This document shows positions 6,910 through 33,991 of a stretch of 64,000 nucleotides of DNA, one piece after another. Each line of letters begins with the position of its first letter. Position 1 is the stretch's first letter. Both the position numbers and the translations under genes were made by a program. The notes under the pieces were generated by a model that worked only from the letters and a program-made list of their open reading frames with translations, searched no databases and was not told the origin of the DNA. This stretch comes from a virus: positions 32,001 to 96,000 of IMG/VR virus record IMGVR_UViG_3300044640_002221. One strand, given 5' to 3'.

Positions 6910-7079
6910 TATTTCTTTGTTAGTGGGTTAATAAACACAGCAAACACCCAGGCTATTACAAACGTCCCTACTACTATCCAGAATCTACTTTGGTTTGTTA
7001 TAGTCTGTACAAACAAACTAACTAGATAGGCTATAAAGCTCATAAGTGTAGAAAATAATAGCGGTGCGGCTTCAAACAT
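6909..7079 (-). CDS. Small two-TM membrane protein (56 aa)
   Basis: Hand translation MFEAAPLLFSTLMSFIAYLVSLFVQTITNQSRFWIVVGTFVIAWVFAVFINPLTKK; its stop abuts the next start. Confidence 0.6.
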   Translation of the reverse strand: MFEAAPLLFSTLMSFIAYLVSLFVQTITNQSRFWIVVGTFVIAWVFAVFINPLTKK

Positions 7080-7244
7080 TTAGTTACCTTCTTTGATTAC
7101 AGATTTTATTATGTCAGTAAGACAAAGATTAACAGATGCTGAGCCTGTTTTTTTAAAAAAACAATGGTAAAAAAAGAAGAAAGAAGAAAGAAGATAATAA
7201 GCCGAGTTCTTTTACCTAGAAACTCTAATGATGCTTTTATCAGG

Positions 7245-11734: not shown

Positions 11735-13078
11735 CTACTCAACTGACTCTAATGTCTTTACTTTTGGTGCGAAGGCACTAAAAAGAGCTGGGTTGGTTTT
11801 TCCAACACTTGAAGAGCTTACAGGTTTAGTAACTACAGGTTCAGTTACAGCTTGCAGAGCAGGCATTCTAGGAGCAGACTCAAAACTAGTCTTACCATTA
11901 GCTACTTCACGCTCTAGCTTTAGAATAGACATAGCATGACGTACCCAGTCTAAAGAAGTCCAGCCTGCTTCAGCCTCAATTACATTTTTATCAGAGACAG
12001 GGTGGAATACTGGGATGTAGTCTTGACCATATTGCTGTTTCTCTAGGTGTCCACAATGCACTTCTGTTACTACTGGATAGCACAACTGACCACCTTGCAG
12101 AACACGGTGGCGTGTACCAGTATAGTTCTGGTCATGCAGGTACTTGAAGTATTCACCTGTAGAATAAATCTCTGAGGGAATGTGAGGGTCTGGTACTACG
12201 TTTCTGTCGAATGTTCCAGTACCAATCCCAGCGTGCTGGGACTTGGATAAACCTTTCAGCTTGAGAATGAATGGACGCTTGAAAGGAACTTTCTGATCTC
12301 CTTCCATTGTGTTAATCTTGGCATCCTCAATGCTTACCCATTTGATAGTAGCTTTTTCAGTATCAATATCATAGTTGTAGATACCTAACTGGAAGACAGC
12401 TATTAAGGCATAACCACCCATACTGCATTTAGCAAACTGAGCATTCTTGTCATTAAACAACTCAGGGTCTCCACCAGTTCCTTCTGGCTTACCATGTAGA
12501 TAATGCTCCCCTGCTTCTACACAAGACTTACAAGTTCGGGGAGTGCTAAAACTTGCGTTAGGATCTGCTCCGATAGGAGGACGACTACCATATAGAACCA
12601 TGTGCTCTTTATCTAACTGAGGGTTAAATACATGAGGATTATTCTTGTTCTGGTACATCCGCTCAAAAGGAAACTTGAGAGGATTGTTGTCGGTGGTATC
12701 TGTACTATTTTTACCTAAATGTTCTACTAAACGAGTAGTACGGCAGATGTTCTTAAAGTTTTTAGGGTCACTATTATCATCAAACGAAGCACCATAATGA
12801 AAGCCTAAGACAATCCCTCTTACAGCACAGAAGTGATGAGAGAAGTGTGATGATACTTCTTTATAAGTTCCAGCACCTTCTTCTCGCTCTTTCTTGGTAG
12901 TAGGTAAAGCCCAATCGAACTTATTAAGAGACTTGATTGAACACTCACGATGAGCTCTCCAAGTGTTGTCAAAGTCTTGACGCTGACCTTCACGCAGGGC
13001 TTGTGGTAATACTTCAGGGTTTTCTTCAAATATTAACTCTTCTGGTTCAAAAGTTGCTAAGTCAGATGTTGTAGTCAT
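11735..13078 (-). CDS. Hypothetical protein (replication-module position; possibly an ssDNA-binding or recombination protein)
   Basis: 447-aa ORF between the helicase and clamp-loader genes; no motif recognised. Confidence 0.55.
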   Translation of the reverse strand: MTTTSDLATFEPEELIFEENPEVLPQALREGQRQDFDNTWRAHRECSIKSLNKFDWALPTTKKEREEGAGTYKEVSSHFSHHFCAVRGIVLGFHYGASFDDNSDPKNFKNICRTTRLVEHLGKNSTDTTDNNPLKFPFERMYQNKNNPHVFNPQLDKEHMVLYGSRPPIGADPNASFSTPRTCKSCVEAGEHYLHGKPEGTGGDPELFNDKNAQFAKCSMGGYALIAVFQLGIYNYDIDTEKATIKWVSIEDAKINTMEGDQKVPFKRPFILKLKGLSKSQHAGIGTGTFDRNVVPDPHIPSEIYSTGEYFKYLHDQNYTGTRHRVLQGGQLCYPVVTEVHCGHLEKQQYGQDYIPVFHPVSDKNVIEAEAGWTSLDWVRHAMSILKLEREVANGKTSFESAPRMPALQAVTEPVVTKPVSSSSVGKTNPALFSAFAPKVKTLESVE

Positions 13079-13158: not shown

Positions 13159-13707
13159 CTAGCTTACTTTCTCGTAAACCACTTGGAAAGTGTTATGAAG
13201 AACTACTCTTGCTACACTAACTGTCATCTCTAGCCCAACGTTAGTGGCACTCTCCCAAGATTTTATCTGGTATATCTTGTATGGTCTACCATTTGAAAAC
13301 TCTTCAGCAGCTTCTTTGAGAACTTTTAAACAGGTGTTGTACTCGTAAAAGATAGCTTCTACCAGACTCTTTATAGGCATTTGAGGAGGCTCTCCTAGAT
13401 TATGCCCTGTAGCTACGCTTATAGAGATTTTGTGGTCGTAGTCTGAGTTAGAACATCCTTCAAAGTTTCTTTCTGTTACGTTTTCTTTGCCAATAAAACC
13501 ATCAGAAACTCTTGAGAGAAAAGCTTTTGACGTTTTTATTAAATTGTAAGAAAGATACTCTTTTTCTGGTTCTACCTTAGTGGAATCACATTTGGAAAAT
13601 TCTGCTACTGGCAGAAGCTCTGGGCTTCTTTCTATCACTTTTTTAAACCAGTTGAGCATATCTTCAACTGTCAAGCTAGACTGTATACTGTATTGAATTT
13701 CTTCCAT
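13159..13707 (-). CDS. Hypothetical protein
   Basis: ORF track. Confidence 0.6.
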   Translation of the reverse strand: MEEIQYSIQSSLTVEDMLNWFKKVIERSPELLPVAEFSKCDSTKVEPEKEYLSYNLIKTSKAFLSRVSDGFIGKENVTERNFEGCSNSDYDHKISISVATGHNLGEPPQMPIKSLVEAIFYEYNTCLKVLKEAAEEFSNGRPYKIYQIKSWESATNVGLEMTVSVARVVLHNTFQVVYEKVS

Positions 13708-13750
13708 TAATCTTTCTTACCATTCTCTTTTCTTTTTTCTTACCTACTTG

Positions 13751-14611
13751 CTACAGTCCTGCCATAGCAAGCCATTTTCGTTTAGCTTTGGGGGAAGGAT
13801 TGAAGTAAAAGTTTACTCCTTCTCCTTTAGGTGCTGTCTTTCTTGTTAGTCCTGGATATCCGCTAACAGCCCAATACTCTGTGGAAAAATAAACCCACTG
13901 TGCAAACCTTTTTAGAAACACACTCTGTCTATTACTAGACCAATGCTTTTCTACTAAATGGCAGAAAGGATTGATAAAAGGTACCAGCCCCTGCGCTTTA
14001 GCTATTTTTAGTAAAATAGGTTCGGATATTCCTGGAGTGACAAACCACTTTCTTAGTTCTCCCTTGGTGAAAGAACCCCACTGTGCCACCCCTTCTATAG
14101 TGGTTAACGAGTCTACAAGCGACTGCTCGTAGCTTAGTGAGTTAGTTCTAGAAAAGCTGTTCTTACCATATTCTAACTCATGCAAAGCTACGTAGGGGTA
14201 GGCGGGGAGGTCTTCTATTCTTCTGAGGTCTAAGATTCTATAACAACCACCTTCTATCTTTTTAGCCGCCCCAGCCAGCTTATCAGAGATCTCTGCTGAG
14301 AGTTCTGTGACAGCTATAAAAGCATAATTGGTTGGGTGAACAAAGAAGAAAGGGTCTGTGGGTAAAAGAAACTCGCTGGTTACTGTTCCTTTAATGCCAC
14401 TACCTTTTAACTCTTTAGGTTGAATAACAAATGCCGCGTCATTAAAAGTTGGGTACTCTAGAGCTTTACGAATCTGGTCTGAAGATGGCTCGTACAAAAG
14501 TTCAGGTTCTAGCCTTAACTTTCTACAAATCCAAGCTATCTGTTCTATAGTACCCAGAGTCAGATAAACACAGCCGGCTCTAAGCTGTGGTAGAACCTCA
14601 GCTAGTAACAT
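13751..14611 (-). CDS. Hypothetical protein, possibly a delta-like clamp-loader subunit
   Basis: 286 aa, overlapping the end of the DnaX-like gene; function inferred from context only. Confidence 0.4.
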   Translation of the reverse strand: MLLAEVLPQLRAGCVYLTLGTIEQIAWICRKLRLEPELLYEPSSDQIRKALEYPTFNDAAFVIQPKELKGSGIKGTVTSEFLLPTDPFFFVHPTNYAFIAVTELSAEISDKLAGAAKKIEGGCYRILDLRRIEDLPAYPYVALHELEYGKNSFSRTNSLSYEQSLVDSLTTIEGVAQWGSFTKGELRKWFVTPGISEPILLKIAKAQGLVPFINPFCHLVEKHWSSNRQSVFLKRFAQWVYFSTEYWAVSGYPGLTRKTAPKGEGVNFYFNPSPKAKRKWLAMAGL

Positions 14612-15719
14612 AGTTTATTACTCCATGATCTTCATCTTGGATGCAAGCTCCTCGTTGAACTAAGTTCTTTCCATACAACTGAGTCACATAAGTAATGAAG
14701 TTAGTTAGTTTAACCTCATATTGTGTGAGAAGGTTTAATGCTACTATTTGGTCTTCGGATAGATTATTAACCATAGCTGCTGAGGTAAGAATGTCATCCT
14801 GCATCTGCTTACAAAGCTGCTCTGGACTTACTCTTTCTAAAAGTTGCTTTGTATAGTGCATTGTATAGAGAAAGTTACTTTTACTCTGTAGCATTTCCCA
14901 TAAAGTCCAGCGCCATTCACCTCTTGCTCTCTGAGCTGTGTATGCTGCTACTTCTGGTGTAACCGTCTCAAACTTTTCTATGCAAGAATCATACAAAGCA
15001 GTAGCCACCCCTATTCTACCTTTAGAGCCTTCTGCTAATATACTTGCAGCTTCTGGGTTCAAGTCTGGGTAGGCTGCTCTCAGAAATACTGCGATAGCTT
15101 CTGGTTCTATTACTCCCAGTCTGATAACACCACTAGCTGACCTTCTTATCAAAGCTGTCCGGTCTTCCTCTGCTAAGTCTTCCTCTTTCATAGTTAGAAA
15201 GATATAACAAACTTGATTACCGGGTACTTCTAGCTCTGTGCGAAGTAAAACTTGCTGCCGAAGGTTTCTAGCGAACTCCTGCCACTCATCAAACACGACG
15301 AACAGTACATCGCGGCTAGGGTCTCCTGTGTTAGTTGCACCTTTAGCAGCAGCATGAAGAGCGTTCTTAACACTTTGGTTAATAGTCTCCTCGGTATAGC
15401 TTCCAGGTTGAACCCAGACTACTCCACTCATAGAGCGGTCTGATAACCTAACATCTATGTCCTTACAGGCTTCACACTCTCCACAAGGTTCATACTCCCC
15501 TTCTACTCTGTTAAGACACCTAAAAGATCGAATCAGAAGTAAGACTAAAGAGGTTTTGCCAACGCCTGACTTCCCTGTAATAAACAAGGAACGAGGTAGA
15601 GCTTTTGCCCCTTTAGTTACTATTCTTTTGAGATAATCAACTTCTGCTTGATTAGTTCCAGAGCCGCAGTAGTAATCTGCCCACCTTTTGGGGGATCTGG
15701 TATAAGGATGATTGTGCAT
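14598..15719 (-). CDS. dnaX: DNA polymerase III gamma/tau (DnaX)-like clamp-loader ATPase
   Basis: FITGKSGVGKTS Walker A, RCLN...EPCGECEAC Zn module, VVFDEWQ Walker B. Confidence 0.85.
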   Translation of the reverse strand: MHNHPYTRSPKRWADYYCGSGTNQAEVDYLKRIVTKGAKALPRSLFITGKSGVGKTSLVLLLIRSFRCLNRVEGEYEPCGECEACKDIDVRLSDRSMSGVVWVQPGSYTEETINQSVKNALHAAAKGATNTGDPSRDVLFVVFDEWQEFARNLRQQVLLRTELEVPGNQVCYIFLTMKEEDLAEEDRTALIRRSASGVIRLGVIEPEAIAVFLRAAYPDLNPEAASILAEGSKGRIGVATALYDSCIEKFETVTPEVAAYTAQRARGEWRWTLWEMLQSKSNFLYTMHYTKQLLERVSPEQLCKQMQDDILTSAAMVNNLSEDQIVALNLLTQYEVKLTNFITYVTQLYGKNLVQRGACIQDEDHGVINYVTS

Positions 15720-18532: not shown

Positions 18533-19106
18533 CTGTTACCCCAAATACGTCTTGTATTAACTTCTGTTGAGCTTCTTCCAGTTCTGCTTGTTCTTCTAAC
18601 ACTTTCAAAACTAACTCAGGGTTTGCAGCACCATACTTCTCTTTAACTTTAGACTCTGCATCAAGAACTTTTTGAGCAGCTCTAAAAGGCATAAAGCAAG
18701 GCTTACCCATAGCTAGATTAGCCTCTCCTAAATAAGCCTTAAGATATACGTCTAAGCAAGGCGTTTCTTCTCCATTAACTACTAAATCTTCTATTACTCT
18801 GACAACTACCTCTATACTTGCCCCATCAGCACCTTCTGGAGGGTGAACTACTAAGCTTCCGGTTTCACCTTCCTCTAACTCAAGTTCATTACCTACATTT
18901 AGGAAGCAAACTTCATTAAAGTTATCAGGTACTGGTGGAATAGGCATCCAAGCCTTAATTTTATAAGGGAGACCCCAACACCCATCTGTAAAGTTCTGGA
19001 CTGTTGCCTCGTCTCCACTGCTTGTAGTAATAATTGTCAAGTATCTACCATCCTCTTCAGGACGCGTGGTTACTGGTCTGTAAAGCTTTCCTAATTCCGT
19101 GATCAT
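18522..19106 (-). CDS. Hypothetical protein with a DUF551-like N-terminus
   Basis: RPEEDGRYLT...IKAWMPIPPVP; paralogous to 18050..18532. Confidence 0.6.
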   Translation of the reverse strand: MITELGKLYRPVTTRPEEDGRYLTIITTSSGDEATVQNFTDGCWGLPYKIKAWMPIPPVPDNFNEVCFLNVGNELELEEGETGSLVVHPPEGADGASIEVVVRVIEDLVVNGEETPCLDVYLKAYLGEANLAMGKPCFMPFRAAQKVLDAESKVKEKYGAANPELVLKVLEEQAELEEAQQKLIQDVFGVTDAD

Positions 19107-24123: not shown

Positions 24124-24274
24124 CACTTGTGTTACGAGTAGCCCGGTTCCGACTACTCTCTCTAGCTTTCACTAGAGGTCAGATCATATCATCCTCAGTT
24201 ATGAGGGAGCCTGTTTCGAGTGTCCGACACCCTACGTCTTGTGACTGACCGTTGAACCTTGTACGTGCTATAAG

Positions 24275-24355
24275 TGGATGCTAAAAGAGTTGAACTTTTC
24301 TTGGGTTTCCCCACGACTTATGAGGTCGTTGCCTAAACCGCTCGGCCAAGCATCC
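24275..24355 (-). tRNA. tRNA(CAU), probably Ile2 (Met not excluded), with a 13-nt variable region; nested in intron 4
   Basis: GGATGCT/AGCATCC+A acceptor; D arm GCCGAGCGGTTTAGGC; ACGAC-CTCATAA-GTCGT anticodon arm; GGGGAAACCC variable hairpin; AAAAG-TTCAACT-CTTTT T arm; no encoded CCA. Confidence 0.88.
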
Positions 24356-24427: not shown

Positions 24428-24703
24428 TTAACAAAGGTCTAAGTTACCTTCTGAACTATAATCTACGTCTGTCAGATGGTCTTGACAACATAAGTAAACT
24501 TTTGCGTCTGCTTTTACCAATCCATCTGCTAACAACTTCTGCACCTTATCTAAAAGCTGCTGAACTGTTATTGCTTCTGGGGGTTTAGGAGCATAGTTTT
24601 GAGGTACTAGTAATGCCCCTATGGTCTTTAAACCTGGATGAGGTGCAGCACCACTTTTGGTTATTGTTTTAGGAAGTATGTAAGGTTCTGTCATGTCTTC
24701 CAC
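24428..24703 (-). CDS. Intron-encoded hypothetical protein (no nuclease motif)
   Basis: ORF track; enclosed by the stem ATGATAGTTA/TAGCTGTCAT between the P and Q elements. Confidence 0.6.
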   Translation of the reverse strand: MEDMTEPYILPKTITKSGAAPHPGLKTIGALLVPQNYAPKPPEAITVQQLLDKVQKLLADGLVKADAKVYLCCQDHLTDVDYSSEGNLDLC

Positions 24704-31723: not shown

Positions 31724-32154
31724 ACCCATCTCCATAATCCTGATACTGGAGAGATAGCATATCCTCTGGCGGCTGCGATCGCTCCGAACTCTTCTGCCCA
31801 AGCGTAATAACCTGGATAGGTAGTTCTGTGTCCTGTTAACCAAGACTGAGCTACTTCTTCTTTTACACAGAAGTTTTCAGCAGCTGTTGAAGCGGACATA
31901 AGATATATGCTACCAAAGTTGAGAGATTTTGCACTCTTCCTTGCTCCGCTTTTGTCTGCTATTGCTCTCCATTCGTGCTCTGGTTTTCCTTCAAATAAAT
32001 GAGGGGCTACACAACCTTTTGATGAGAGAGTATGTAAATCGGAGTAGGGATTTACATACTCTGTACCATCTTCTAAGTAGAGCTTAGTTTTTGCTAGATA
32101 ACTGTTGACCATTGTGGGGTCTTTCGACCATGCTGCGGCTGTGATTAGCTCTTG
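31724..32154 (-). CDS. polA: Family A DNA polymerase exon containing motif B
   Basis: QELITAAAWSKDPTM...DLHT...RKSAKSLNFGSIY...SGLWRW(V); 431 nt, and phase matches both neighbouring exons. Confidence 0.92.
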
Positions 32155-32308
32155 CTTTTGTGATTACCGTGAGGCTCTTTATCCTCACCTCTTATAGTTT
32201 CCTATAAGCTTCGACTATCTCTTCATCTCATGTTGTATTAATACCCTAGACGGGGCTCGAACCCGCAGTTCCTTTCGTAAGCATAAGGGTTAGGAGAAAA
32301 GGTTATAA

Positions 32309-33418
32309 CTACCTGAGCCATTTTCTTATAGCGTTGTCACTTACACCAAACATTTTACCCACAGAAACATAACTTTTTGAAGAAACTAGAGCTAATAGTT
32401 CTTCTTTACTAGGTCTGTCTTTGACTTTTCTAGTATGTAATTGATGACAAGAGGGACAGCGAGCACTCTTTCTACTCAATGTGATTTTGCCGCAGTCTTT
32501 ACACTTGTTATCTTGAACTTCTTTGTTTCTGAGTTTTTCCTGTTTTAGCTTCAGTAAGTCTGCCTTTTCTTGTCTTTTAATGGTCAGTTGTTTCTGCTTT
32601 TCTTCTGTAGCCTTATTACGAAGATGTCTCTCTGCCTGCTTAACTCTTAGTGTGTCTAACTTTACTGTTTCTAGTGTTATTAGCTGCATTGCCAGACTGA
32701 ACTTTCTTTCTAGCTTGCTTGTAGAGTCTGCATATAATACTTGACAAACTTTTAAAGCTCGCAGCCCATTAACATTGACCTCGCAGTAGTTACCTCTATT
32801 AACAGGTCTACACCTATAAGCTGGGTCTATAGACTTTACATATTCTATAAACCCTTCCACCATATTTATAGACCCACATAGACCAACTGCTCTTTTCTTT
32901 TCTCCTACATAAACCCATCCATCTCCATCTATACAGCCCCGCCAAAAGTGACGCTGTAAAGAGGGTTCTATGTAAGGTGGTGATGCTATTAGAGATTTAC
33001 GAGGTACTACCCCAAGCTTTGCCAAGTCTTCTTTCATTCTTTTTGAGAATACTGATAGACAAGCAGAGTTTTTCTTCGTGTATCTAACTTTTGTGTGGGC
33101 TTCTAAATAATCTTTAAACTCTTCCAGTATAAGAAAATCATTTTTATGTACTTCTAAGGAAATATTATTTCCTTTTGTAGATACACACCCATCAGTTATT
33201 AAAAACCCAAGGAAATAGGCTTTACTTTCAGTATCAATGTTTTCAAAGAATGACTCGTTCACAGGTTTAAGCGTGCCTCTTCCGTTTTTGGCTACTAGGG
33301 CAAGATTAATATAACATAAGATGCCTGGCGTTCGTGGAGCTTTCTGCTGTTCCAGCTTATTAACTCTAGTCTGTACACCTTCCTTCCATTCCTGGAAGGC
33401 TTGGCTCGGTGTTGTCAT
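32309..33418 (-). CDS. LAGLIDADG homing endonuclease with a C-terminal Zn ribbon and HTH
   Basis: YFLGFLITDGCV, FWRGCIDGDGWV, CKDCG...CPSC, SYVSVGKMFGVSDNAIRKW; the N-terminus overlaps the intron core. Confidence 0.88.
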   Translation of the reverse strand: MTTPSQAFQEWKEGVQTRVNKLEQQKAPRTPGILCYINLALVAKNGRGTLKPVNESFFENIDTESKAYFLGFLITDGCVSTKGNNISLEVHKNDFLILEEFKDYLEAHTKVRYTKKNSACLSVFSKRMKEDLAKLGVVPRKSLIASPPYIEPSLQRHFWRGCIDGDGWVYVGEKKRAVGLCGSINMVEGFIEYVKSIDPAYRCRPVNRGNYCEVNVNGLRALKVCQVLYADSTSKLERKFSLAMQLITLETVKLDTLRVKQAERHLRNKATEEKQKQLTIKRQEKADLLKLKQEKLRNKEVQDNKCKDCGKITLSRKSARCPSCHQLHTRKVKDRPSKEELLALVSSKSYVSVGKMFGVSDNAIRKWLR

Positions 33419-33514
33419 GCTCTAGTAGAGTTTAGAGTTCACCGAGTTAACCAGGTTTACACTACATGATTACTCGTGTAGGAGGCCAATGGTAGATGCA
33501 ACCCTGTCTTTGCC

Positions 33515-33856
33515 TTAAAGACGGTTATGCTTTTCGGTTCTTTGTACTCTTCTTGGTACTTTATTCTCATCGAGAATGTTATATAAGACAGTAGTGCCAA
33601 AACCAAACTCTTTTAGGATGTCGCCAGCTTTTGAACCAGCTTTATATTTTGATATAACCTGCTCAACAGTGGCAGAAGGCAGCTTGACTTTACTAGCGAT
33701 AGTCCTTCTTTCATAAACTTGGTTTTTATCCAATAGAGTATAAAAATTATGACTGTTAAGCTCGTATCTCAGTTTTATTCTGTGTACAGGCTCGCCATCT
33801 TTATATGCTGCTATTATTTCTGCTACTTGTTGTGGGGTTAAATCTTTATAGCTCAT
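33515..33856 (-). CDS. Intron-encoded tandem-HTH DNA-binding protein
   Basis: Two similar HTH-like units (QVAEIIAAYKDGEPVHRIKLRYEL / QVISKYKAGSKAGDILKEFGFG); no nuclease motif. Confidence 0.65.
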   Translation of the reverse strand: MSYKDLTPQQVAEIIAAYKDGEPVHRIKLRYELNSHNFYTLLDKNQVYERRTIASKVKLPSATVEQVISKYKAGSKAGDILKEFGFGTTVLYNILDENKVPRRVQRTEKHNRL

Positions 33857-33877
33857 TGCACCTACCGGATATTTTCA

Positions 33878-33991
33878 ACCTGCGTAATCACAGCTTATAT
33901 GCACTTCTCCTGGTCTACATTCAAACCCTACTCTGGGATTACCTGGGAAGGTAATTGTTCTTGTTTCAGGTTGCCATAGAGTAATTCCCAA
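33878..33991 (-). CDS. polA: Family A DNA polymerase exon containing motif A
   Basis: ...TITFPGNPRVGFECRPGEVHISCDYAG; same frame as 34154..35554 but separated from it by 4 stops; the 5' limit (TTG 33991, preceded by AAAGGA) is uncertain. Confidence 0.75.

Follow-up and report, generated by a model that had tools for sequence, protein, structure and literature searches.

The stretch of DNA analysed here (the window; 64,000 nt, bases 32001-96000 of the 136.9-kb IMG/VR virus record IMGVR_UViG_3300044640_002221, which is 71% complete according to CheckV) carries on its minus strand the gene for a cyanophage family-A DNA polymerase (polA), in which several group I introns are inserted. We found that intron 1 contains, at the tip of its P8 helix, two pieces of a tRNA gene lying about 1 kb apart, with a homing endonuclease gene between them. 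In our judgement it is highly probable that these pieces derive from a single tRNA-Leu(UAA) of phage type, that this tRNA was split between its nucleotides 43 and 44 by an insert encoding a chimeric endonuclease, that it is now dead, and that the pairing of its acceptor strands likely serves as a clamp. Coordinates are window positions unless another locus is named, and all window features described below lie on the minus strand.

The P8 helix ends in a divided tRNA gene

Intron 1 occupies positions 32155-33877. It was delimited by the continuity of the exons and by the two halves of the Rfam model RF00028, which cmscan places on either side of a long open reading frame (ORF), at 33509-33276 (43.7 bits) and at 32389-32191 (28.4 bits). 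The final codons of the upstream exon, which ends at 33878, encode DYAG, the downstream exon opens with QELITAAAWSKD at 32154, directly after G32155, and the junction across the intron thus reads DYAG / QELITAAAW. The group I core (P3-P9) is conserved and splicing is predicted. P8 consists of 9 bp (33323-33315 with 32232-32224) and is prolonged by an extension in which 9 of 10 bp are paired (33314-33305 against 32242-32233). These pairings, whose 5' strands together cover 33305-33323, were read from the sequence and supported by cofolding.

The 5' piece of the tRNA (nucleotides 1-43; 33260-33301) begins just inside this helix. It comprises an acceptor strand, GCCCUAG (33301-33295), followed by U8 and A9, a D arm (33292-33275) in which GCC and GGC form a 3-bp stem around a 12-nt loop containing GG, and an anticodon region with a truncated 5' stem strand, the loop CUUAAAC (33271-33265) and a 3' strand CUGUG (33264-33260). 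The 3' piece (32242-32271) starts with a variable loop (32271-32267), continues with the T arm GCGGG-UUCGAGC-CCCGU (32266-32250), whose stem has 5 bp and whose loop is UUCGAGC, and ends with the acceptor 3' strand CUAGGGU (32249-32243), which follows the T arm directly, and A73 at 32242. All motifs quoted in the preliminary description of this DNA are therefore present where it had placed them. Its central claim, that a tRNA-like element is split by an endonuclease gene, is likewise borne out, as both pieces match one tRNA family (see below) around an insert of 989 nt. The break falls between nucleotides 43 and 44, where the variable loop begins.

Although about 1 kb apart, the two acceptor strands pair at 7 of 7 positions, and U33302 with A32242 may add an eighth pair. 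Beyond a bulge of 3 nt in the 5' strand, the acceptor helix is continued by the P8 extension (10 bp) and P8 (9 bp), and cofolding predicts one continuous helix of 27 bp (P8, extension and acceptor) plus the T hairpin. As a consequence of this arrangement, A32242, which had been described as a discriminator, is indeed present as A73, but it is base-paired within the P8 extension.

When the pieces were compared with the features of a cloverleaf, the acceptor stem, a D arm with G18 G19 and a T loop of the type UUCRA were found, whereas the anticodon stem of 5 bp with a 7-nt loop was absent. In comparison to the family, the anticodon stem has a 5' strand that is 3 nt short, the best local stem has 4 bp with an 8-nt loop, and the D loop contains one extra base. 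The UAA anticodon loop suspected earlier thus stands as far as the loop is concerned, because CUUAAAC is identical to loops of tRNA-Leu(UAA) genes in the family, while the stem that should carry it is defective. With 3 nt of the anticodon stem missing and the body of the tRNA interrupted, the ability to decode has been lost. The gene is dead and in two pieces.

The pieces belong to a phage tRNA-Leu family

The D arm of the 5' piece led to a family of phage tRNA-Leu genes with the D arm GTAGCCCAA(n)GGAAGAGGCA, which the split tRNA fits except for a C13 to A change and the extra loop base. At least 119 IMG/VR contigs contain the signature of this D arm, GTAGCCMAA(1-4)GGAAGAGGCA, and all 75 signature carriers recognised by ARAGORN have a Leu anticodon. 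When the two pieces are joined to 72 nt, 57-58 of the 72 positions are identical to those of the best family members, and the top six of these are all tRNA-Leu(UAA). The loop CUUAAAC is that of several Leu(UAA) members and A73 is present; in the member of locus L118 both the acceptor stem and the CTTAAAC loop are identical to those of the split tRNA. The identity proposed in the preliminary description, tRNA-Leu(UAA), is therefore upheld, and we regard the tRNA ancestry of the pieces, their identity and the point of the break as demonstrated. Moreover, when the 5' piece is placed in register with the D arms of tRNA-Leu genes in loci L061, L060 and L050, 13 of 13 and 10 of 10 bases agree, and each of these genes directly follows an endonuclease gene with the same tail as the one described below.

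As to the family itself (L095-L213), it is widespread in phages and combines a 3-bp D stem and a large D loop, both of the Leu type, with a short variable loop of 5 nt. Its members cover all six Leu anticodons, some of them (L112 and L199) have inserts of 30-45 nt in the anticodon region, and some are truncated 5' fragments; no endonuclease gene was seen to follow such fragments in other phages.

A scan for the exact T arm plus acceptor strand gave no match in IMG/VR. In prokaryote genomes (596 Gb) it hit 7 places, only one of which is a tRNA (an archaeal tRNA-Thr). As judged from these comparisons, the split tRNA does not seem to have been donated recently by a cell. The tRNAs of the phage itself (Met, Arg, Thr and His) and those of its relative were also considered as a source, and they bear no resemblance to the pieces.

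Tests against chance resemblance

Generic hidden Markov models (HMMs) of tRNA thirds proved too weak for this purpose (real tRNAs score only 3-7 bits with them), and a genome-wide BLAST search with tRNA 5' thirds returned many chance matches of 13-17 nt. For these reasons we used tests at a fixed place, which are free of the weakness of genome-wide chance matches. When compared with a set of 194 D arms from phage tRNAs, the 22 nt that follow the acceptor strand obtain a score of 11 (null mean 2.0, standard deviation 2.0), a value reached by 4 of 24000 random 22-mers of the genome and by 1 of 6000 shuffles, which corresponds to P ~2e-4 at this fixed place. The B-box GGTTCGANNCC is found a single time in the window, where 0.09 occurrences would be expected.

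Joining the halves in silico, as had been suggested in the preliminary description, gave a divided answer. ARAGORN called no tRNA in the homology-guided join, which we attribute to decay of the anticodon stem and not to an absence of tRNA ancestry, while it accepted 163 of 2650 artificial joins as tRNAs. Many different anticodons appeared among these calls, and its score must therefore come from the acceptor, D and T arms. When the interior of the 5' piece was shuffled, any call at all was obtained in 3 of 25 shuffles, with at most 10 joins each; shuffling the interior of the 3' piece left calls in none of 25.

The family HMM, searched with nhmmer against the 137-kb genome, placed the 5' piece at rank 2 (E 0.022, model positions 1-37, at 33301-33267) and the 3' piece at rank 3 (E 0.12, model positions 43-74, at 32273-32242). 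Both matches are on the same strand and in the right order, 994 nt apart, and they rank between the real tRNA-Arg and tRNA-His. Simple arithmetic on this result puts the chance of two independent family-HMM matches occurring in order within 1.5 kb at ~1e-5.

The insert encodes a putative chimeric endonuclease linked to tRNA genes

The homing endonuclease ORF extends from a likely GUG start at 33262-33260 to a TAG stop at 32311-32309 (32309-33262). Its frame is open further upstream, up to an ATG at 33418, and no in-frame ATG lies between 33418 and the first LAGLIDADG motif. The long frame (33418-32309) overlaps the 5' piece, as the preliminary description had noted, and the likely GUG sits within the 3' strand of the anticodon stem. 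The protein matches Pfam PF14528 (LAGLIDADG_3) and phrog_4645 (E 2e-43), the latter alignment starting at residue 1 of the GUG-initiated protein. Residues 1-196, counted from this GUG, form the LAGLIDADG part; both motifs are invariant in the alignment, and nuclease activity is predicted.

The last ~70 residues (32312-32560) form a different kind of module, a C-terminal DNA-binding tail with a Zn ribbon and a helix-turn-helix (HTH), which is 42-58% identical to tails of HNH and GIY-YIG enzymes and matches phrog_15471 and phrog_10822, 'HNH endonuclease'. By its domains, the predicted enzyme is thus a chimera of a LAGLIDADG nuclease and a tail otherwise found on HNH/GIY-YIG enzymes. No IMG/VR locus matched both the nuclease domain and the tail, and the closest non-self protein is at most 45% identical. 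The loci that match the tail only are situated in phage tRNA arrays: in 30 of 37 of them, L050, L060 and L061 included, the stop of the gene lies -9 to +10 nt from a tRNA gene, often one for tRNA-Leu, and the link of this tail to tRNA genes is thereby demonstrated.

We also considered the idea that the endonuclease had come as a cassette bringing a replacement tRNA half with it. This was rejected, since no leftover 5' part of the downstream tRNA was found upstream of related phage endonuclease genes. Nor did intron 1 itself yield an intact tRNA that could be such a replacement.

A close relative lacks the whole inserted block

The single close relative in IMG/VR is L008, whose polymerase exon 1 protein is 73% identical. 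At the same site it has an ORF-less homologue of intron 1 (RF00028, 81.8 bits). On the upstream side of the intron the homology ends at 33877, while at the other end the segment 32155-32232 (P8 3' strand, J8/7, P7 3' strand, P9 and the intron-terminal G, assigned from the cmscan alignment) shows 79% identity to L008 13226-13354. Everything between ~33314 and 32233 of the window is missing from L008, and both tRNA-like pieces and the ORF therefore constitute one inserted block.

More alleles of intron 1 were sought with conserved core motifs. In IMG/VR this search recovered, besides L008, no more than one distant intron whose P8 is short, and in metagenomes it gave nothing useful.

Another polA intron carries an intact tRNA gene

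The preliminary description had drawn a parallel to an intact tRNA in intron 4, and we could confirm it. An intact tRNA-Met gene lies in the P6 loop of that intron, at 24274-24355, and it is conserved in L008 at 18563-18643. This tRNA has 81-82 nt, the anticodon CAU, a D arm of Leu/Ser type and a long variable arm, and scores 50.8 bits. The presence of this intact tRNA-Met in P6 in both phages shows that these introns do carry tRNA genes as cargo. A full-text search of open-access literature found no description of phage group I introns carrying tRNA genes.

Like the split tRNA on P8, the P6 tRNA is mounted on a helix that flanks it, and TGCTAAACT lies ~8 nt upstream of the P6 tRNA. Intron 4 also contains an ORF of 91 codons upstream of the tRNA-Met (24428-24703); L008 is without this ORF, with ~300 bp missing.

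Origin and present role of the split tRNA

According to the preliminary description, a tRNA gene had been captured by the intron and then invaded by the endonuclease gene. The part of this claim that concerns the outcome holds, as the element is derived from a tRNA and interrupted by the endonuclease gene. Less firm is the order of the two steps, because P8 of L008 is bare and no intact-tRNA allele was found. An order in which the tRNA-Leu came to P8 first and the endonuclease second is plausible, and it would explain the presence of an endonuclease with a tail of the tRNA-array type; on the other hand, the unit could have arrived ready-made. If the tRNA did come first, the endonuclease may have entered because its tail recognises the DNA of tRNA genes, possibly those for tRNA-Leu. 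What has remained under selection is most likely the 7-8 bp pairing of the acceptor strands. Stacked on the P8 extension, the acceptor helix would, together with P8, tie together the ends of the 1.06-kb insert and thus act as a structural clamp. We propose this role because an intron in an essential gene needs closure for the ribozyme core to fold, and among the possible present roles it seems to be the most likely one.

Several observations weigh against this view of a single tRNA-Leu gene at P8 that was split by the endonuclease gene. In L008, P8 is a plain 6-bp hairpin (GUCUUG/CAAGAU) with a 5-nt loop, containing neither a tRNA nor an ORF, and the core-motif searches of IMG/VR and metagenomes yielded no allele whose P8 holds an intact tRNA. 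The split tRNA is known as a single copy, hence it allows no test of covariation or selection. The 5' piece lies in a frame that is translatable from the ATG at 33418, and a part of it might have been shaped by coding (GGAAGAGGC encodes Gly-Arg-Gly, and CUUAAA encodes Leu-Lys). Finally, short tRNA-like matches do arise in genome-wide searches: the first 17 nt of a phage tRNA-Phe are matched at 17 of 17 positions within polA exon 2 (31844-31860), in a segment encoding KEEVAQS. No T arm follows downstream, and we judged this match to be due to chance.

An ordinary P8 extension combined with a GC-rich hairpin might in principle imitate tRNA arms in the same manner. A closing helix is required wherever an ORF occupies P8, hairpins resembling T arms are estimated to occur about once per window if permissive stems are allowed, and short tRNA-like matches, as just mentioned, do appear by chance. 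Nevertheless, the rarity of the B-box, the ARAGORN shuffles, the D-arm test at a fixed place, the family identity and the family HMM jointly oppose such an explanation, which we find barely credible and close to refuted. Slightly less improbable, though still very unlikely, is that the true tRNA relic is a contiguous stretch of 77 nt (32318-32242), the tRNA that usually follows endonucleases with this tail, and that the distant 5' strand is no more than a complement closing P8. This stretch shares the T arm with the split tRNA, has GCUCAGG as the rival 5' partner of the acceptor strand, and gives a weak cmscan match to RF00005 (17.7 bits, the gathering score being 29; E 0.038 per genome). It is also consistent with this idea that the UAG stop of the ORF falls on U8-A9-G10 of the contiguous version, since in L039 and L047 the stop likewise overlaps the tRNA by 9 nt. 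However, its D-arm region scores 0 (P 0.92), its acceptor pairs at 6 of 7 positions with three G-U pairs, its local fold is no better than those of shuffles (z +1.25), ARAGORN does not call it, and the family HMM finds nothing upstream of 32273, whereas the distant 5' piece fits the tRNA-Leu family over 43 nt.

A different question, compatible with tRNA ancestry, is whether the element is still a live processing signal, maintained by selection, at which RNase P and RNase Z of the host would cut at 33302/33301 and after 32242 and so release the endonuclease mRNA from the intron, its two ends joined by the tRNA-like fold. The parts read by these enzymes are intact (the 7-bp acceptor, the canonical T arm, and G18 G19 opposite U55 C56), and the part that has decayed, the anticodon stem, is dispensable for both. 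In addition, the tRNA-Met that lies intact in P6 of intron 4 has to be excised from the intron RNA, and so processing of this kind must occur in the phage. Yet leader and trailer are paired here, as A73 forms part of the P8 extension and the helix is interrupted by no more than a 3-nt bulge, and this is not the usual form of a substrate; a paired leader and trailer disfavour cleavage by RNase P. Given a single sequence, the good state of the acceptor, T-arm and D-arm parts may also simply reflect youth. We thus consider a live processing signal unlikely, albeit clearly more probable than the two explanations discussed above. A wider scenario would combine both functions: introns of this kind would carry tRNA genes, the endonuclease would have homed into the cargo tRNA and not into polA, and the relic would clamp P8 and at the same time be cut by RNase P and RNase Z, so that an mRNA with tRNA-like ends is released. 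This combination, too, we hold to be rather doubtful. By comparison, a dead tRNA-Leu(UAA) that was split by the endonuclease gene, and whose acceptor pairing acts as a clamp, accounts best for the findings.

Comparison with known systems

In transfer-messenger RNA (tmRNA), the ends form an acceptor/T-arm domain and a coding stretch replaces the middle. A split tRNA with an ORF in its middle has the same architecture, but the likeness ends there, as the element described here shows no homology to tmRNA and no alanine identity, and its ORF has at least 317 codons. In cyanobacteria and plastids, group I introns reside within tRNA-Leu(UAA) genes, at U34/A35. These introns (PMC3984707) share with our case the tRNA-Leu(UAA), a group I intron and the cyanobacterial setting; in our case, however, the nesting is inverted, with the tRNA inside the intron, and it is a bare ORF at nucleotides 43/44, not a ribozyme, that interrupts the tRNA.

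The td, nrdB and sunY introns of phage T4 (PMC3984707) are similar in that an intron of a phage replication gene carries a homing endonuclease ORF in a peripheral loop, which here is P8, and in that an ORF-less allele exists, here in L008. They differ in that the present ORF is wrapped in two tRNA pieces and that its tail points to a tRNA target instead of the intron insertion site. SegB of phage T4, an endonuclease of a tRNA cluster, recognises a site of which the T-psi-C stem-loop motif of tRNA genes is a part (PMC2330249). The likeness to such free-standing endonucleases lies in the tail, since the Zn ribbon and HTH found here are those of HNH/GIY-YIG genes that abut phage tRNA genes. On the other hand, the nuclease in the present case is of LAGLIDADG and not of GIY-YIG/HNH type, and the gene is located inside a tRNA inside an intron, not between tRNA genes.

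Intron-borne homing endonucleases and endonucleases that target tRNA genes are thus both of known kinds, and it is the nesting of four elements that is unusual: the endonuclease gene lies in a tRNA gene, the tRNA gene in a group I intron and the intron in polA, with each layer nameable from the sequence. The finding links the endonucleases of introns with the free-standing ones of phage tRNA arrays, which are usually treated apart, and the combination of a LAGLIDADG nuclease with an HNH/GIY-YIG-type tail shows that modules have been swapped between the two groups. It also suggests a route by which an endonuclease may enter an intron, that is, via a tRNA cargo and not via the homing site of the host gene. 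Taken with the intact tRNA-Met of a neighbouring intron, the finding lends support to the view of phage group I introns as carriers of tRNA genes.

Other features of intron 1 and its surroundings

The 5' part of intron 1, in the region of the P1 loop, contains an ORF of 113 codons (33515-33856) from the ORF list, whose product has two HTH motifs (weak match to HTH_7). It is conserved as a protein in both phages, the L008 counterpart having 122 residues and the same place (12678-13046). BLASTP aligns it with the N-terminal domain of the LAGLIDADG homologue P0012 (E 3e-8); LAGLIDADG homologues carry an HTH domain fused at the N-terminus, and the LAGLIDADG ORF of the window is without that domain. 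On these comparisons, the endonuclease may be split in two, or the 113-aa ORF may be a relic.

Two weak leads concern expression of the endonuclease. The motif GGAAGAGG (33283-33276), located 13 nt before the GUG, is a possible ribosome-binding site, and in the cofold it can pair with CCUUUUCU just after the stop. Further upstream, TGTTATATT (TGnTATATT; 33308-33316) resembles an extended -10 motif, and a transcript started from it would begin near G33301. This suggestion is speculative: the motif has 3 matches in the window against 2.5 expected, which is not significant, a -35/-10 scan flags no promoter, and only the position of the motif is suggestive.

The exon encoding the exonuclease/N-terminal part of the polymerase has distant kin in the polymerases of Microcystis and Pseudanabaena phages; the PA-SR01 polymerase was too distant for mapping the downstream polA exons. 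In L008, polA exon 2 (13251-15095) harbours an intein-like insert with a LAGLIDADG-type motif, placed between RKSAK and SLNFGSIY (motif B), and polA of the window is uninterrupted at this point. Finally, a CRISPR spacer on a metagenome contig (L094, ~7068-7106) holds the 18-nt conserved J8/7-P7 motif of these introns, and it may target an intron-bearing phage.

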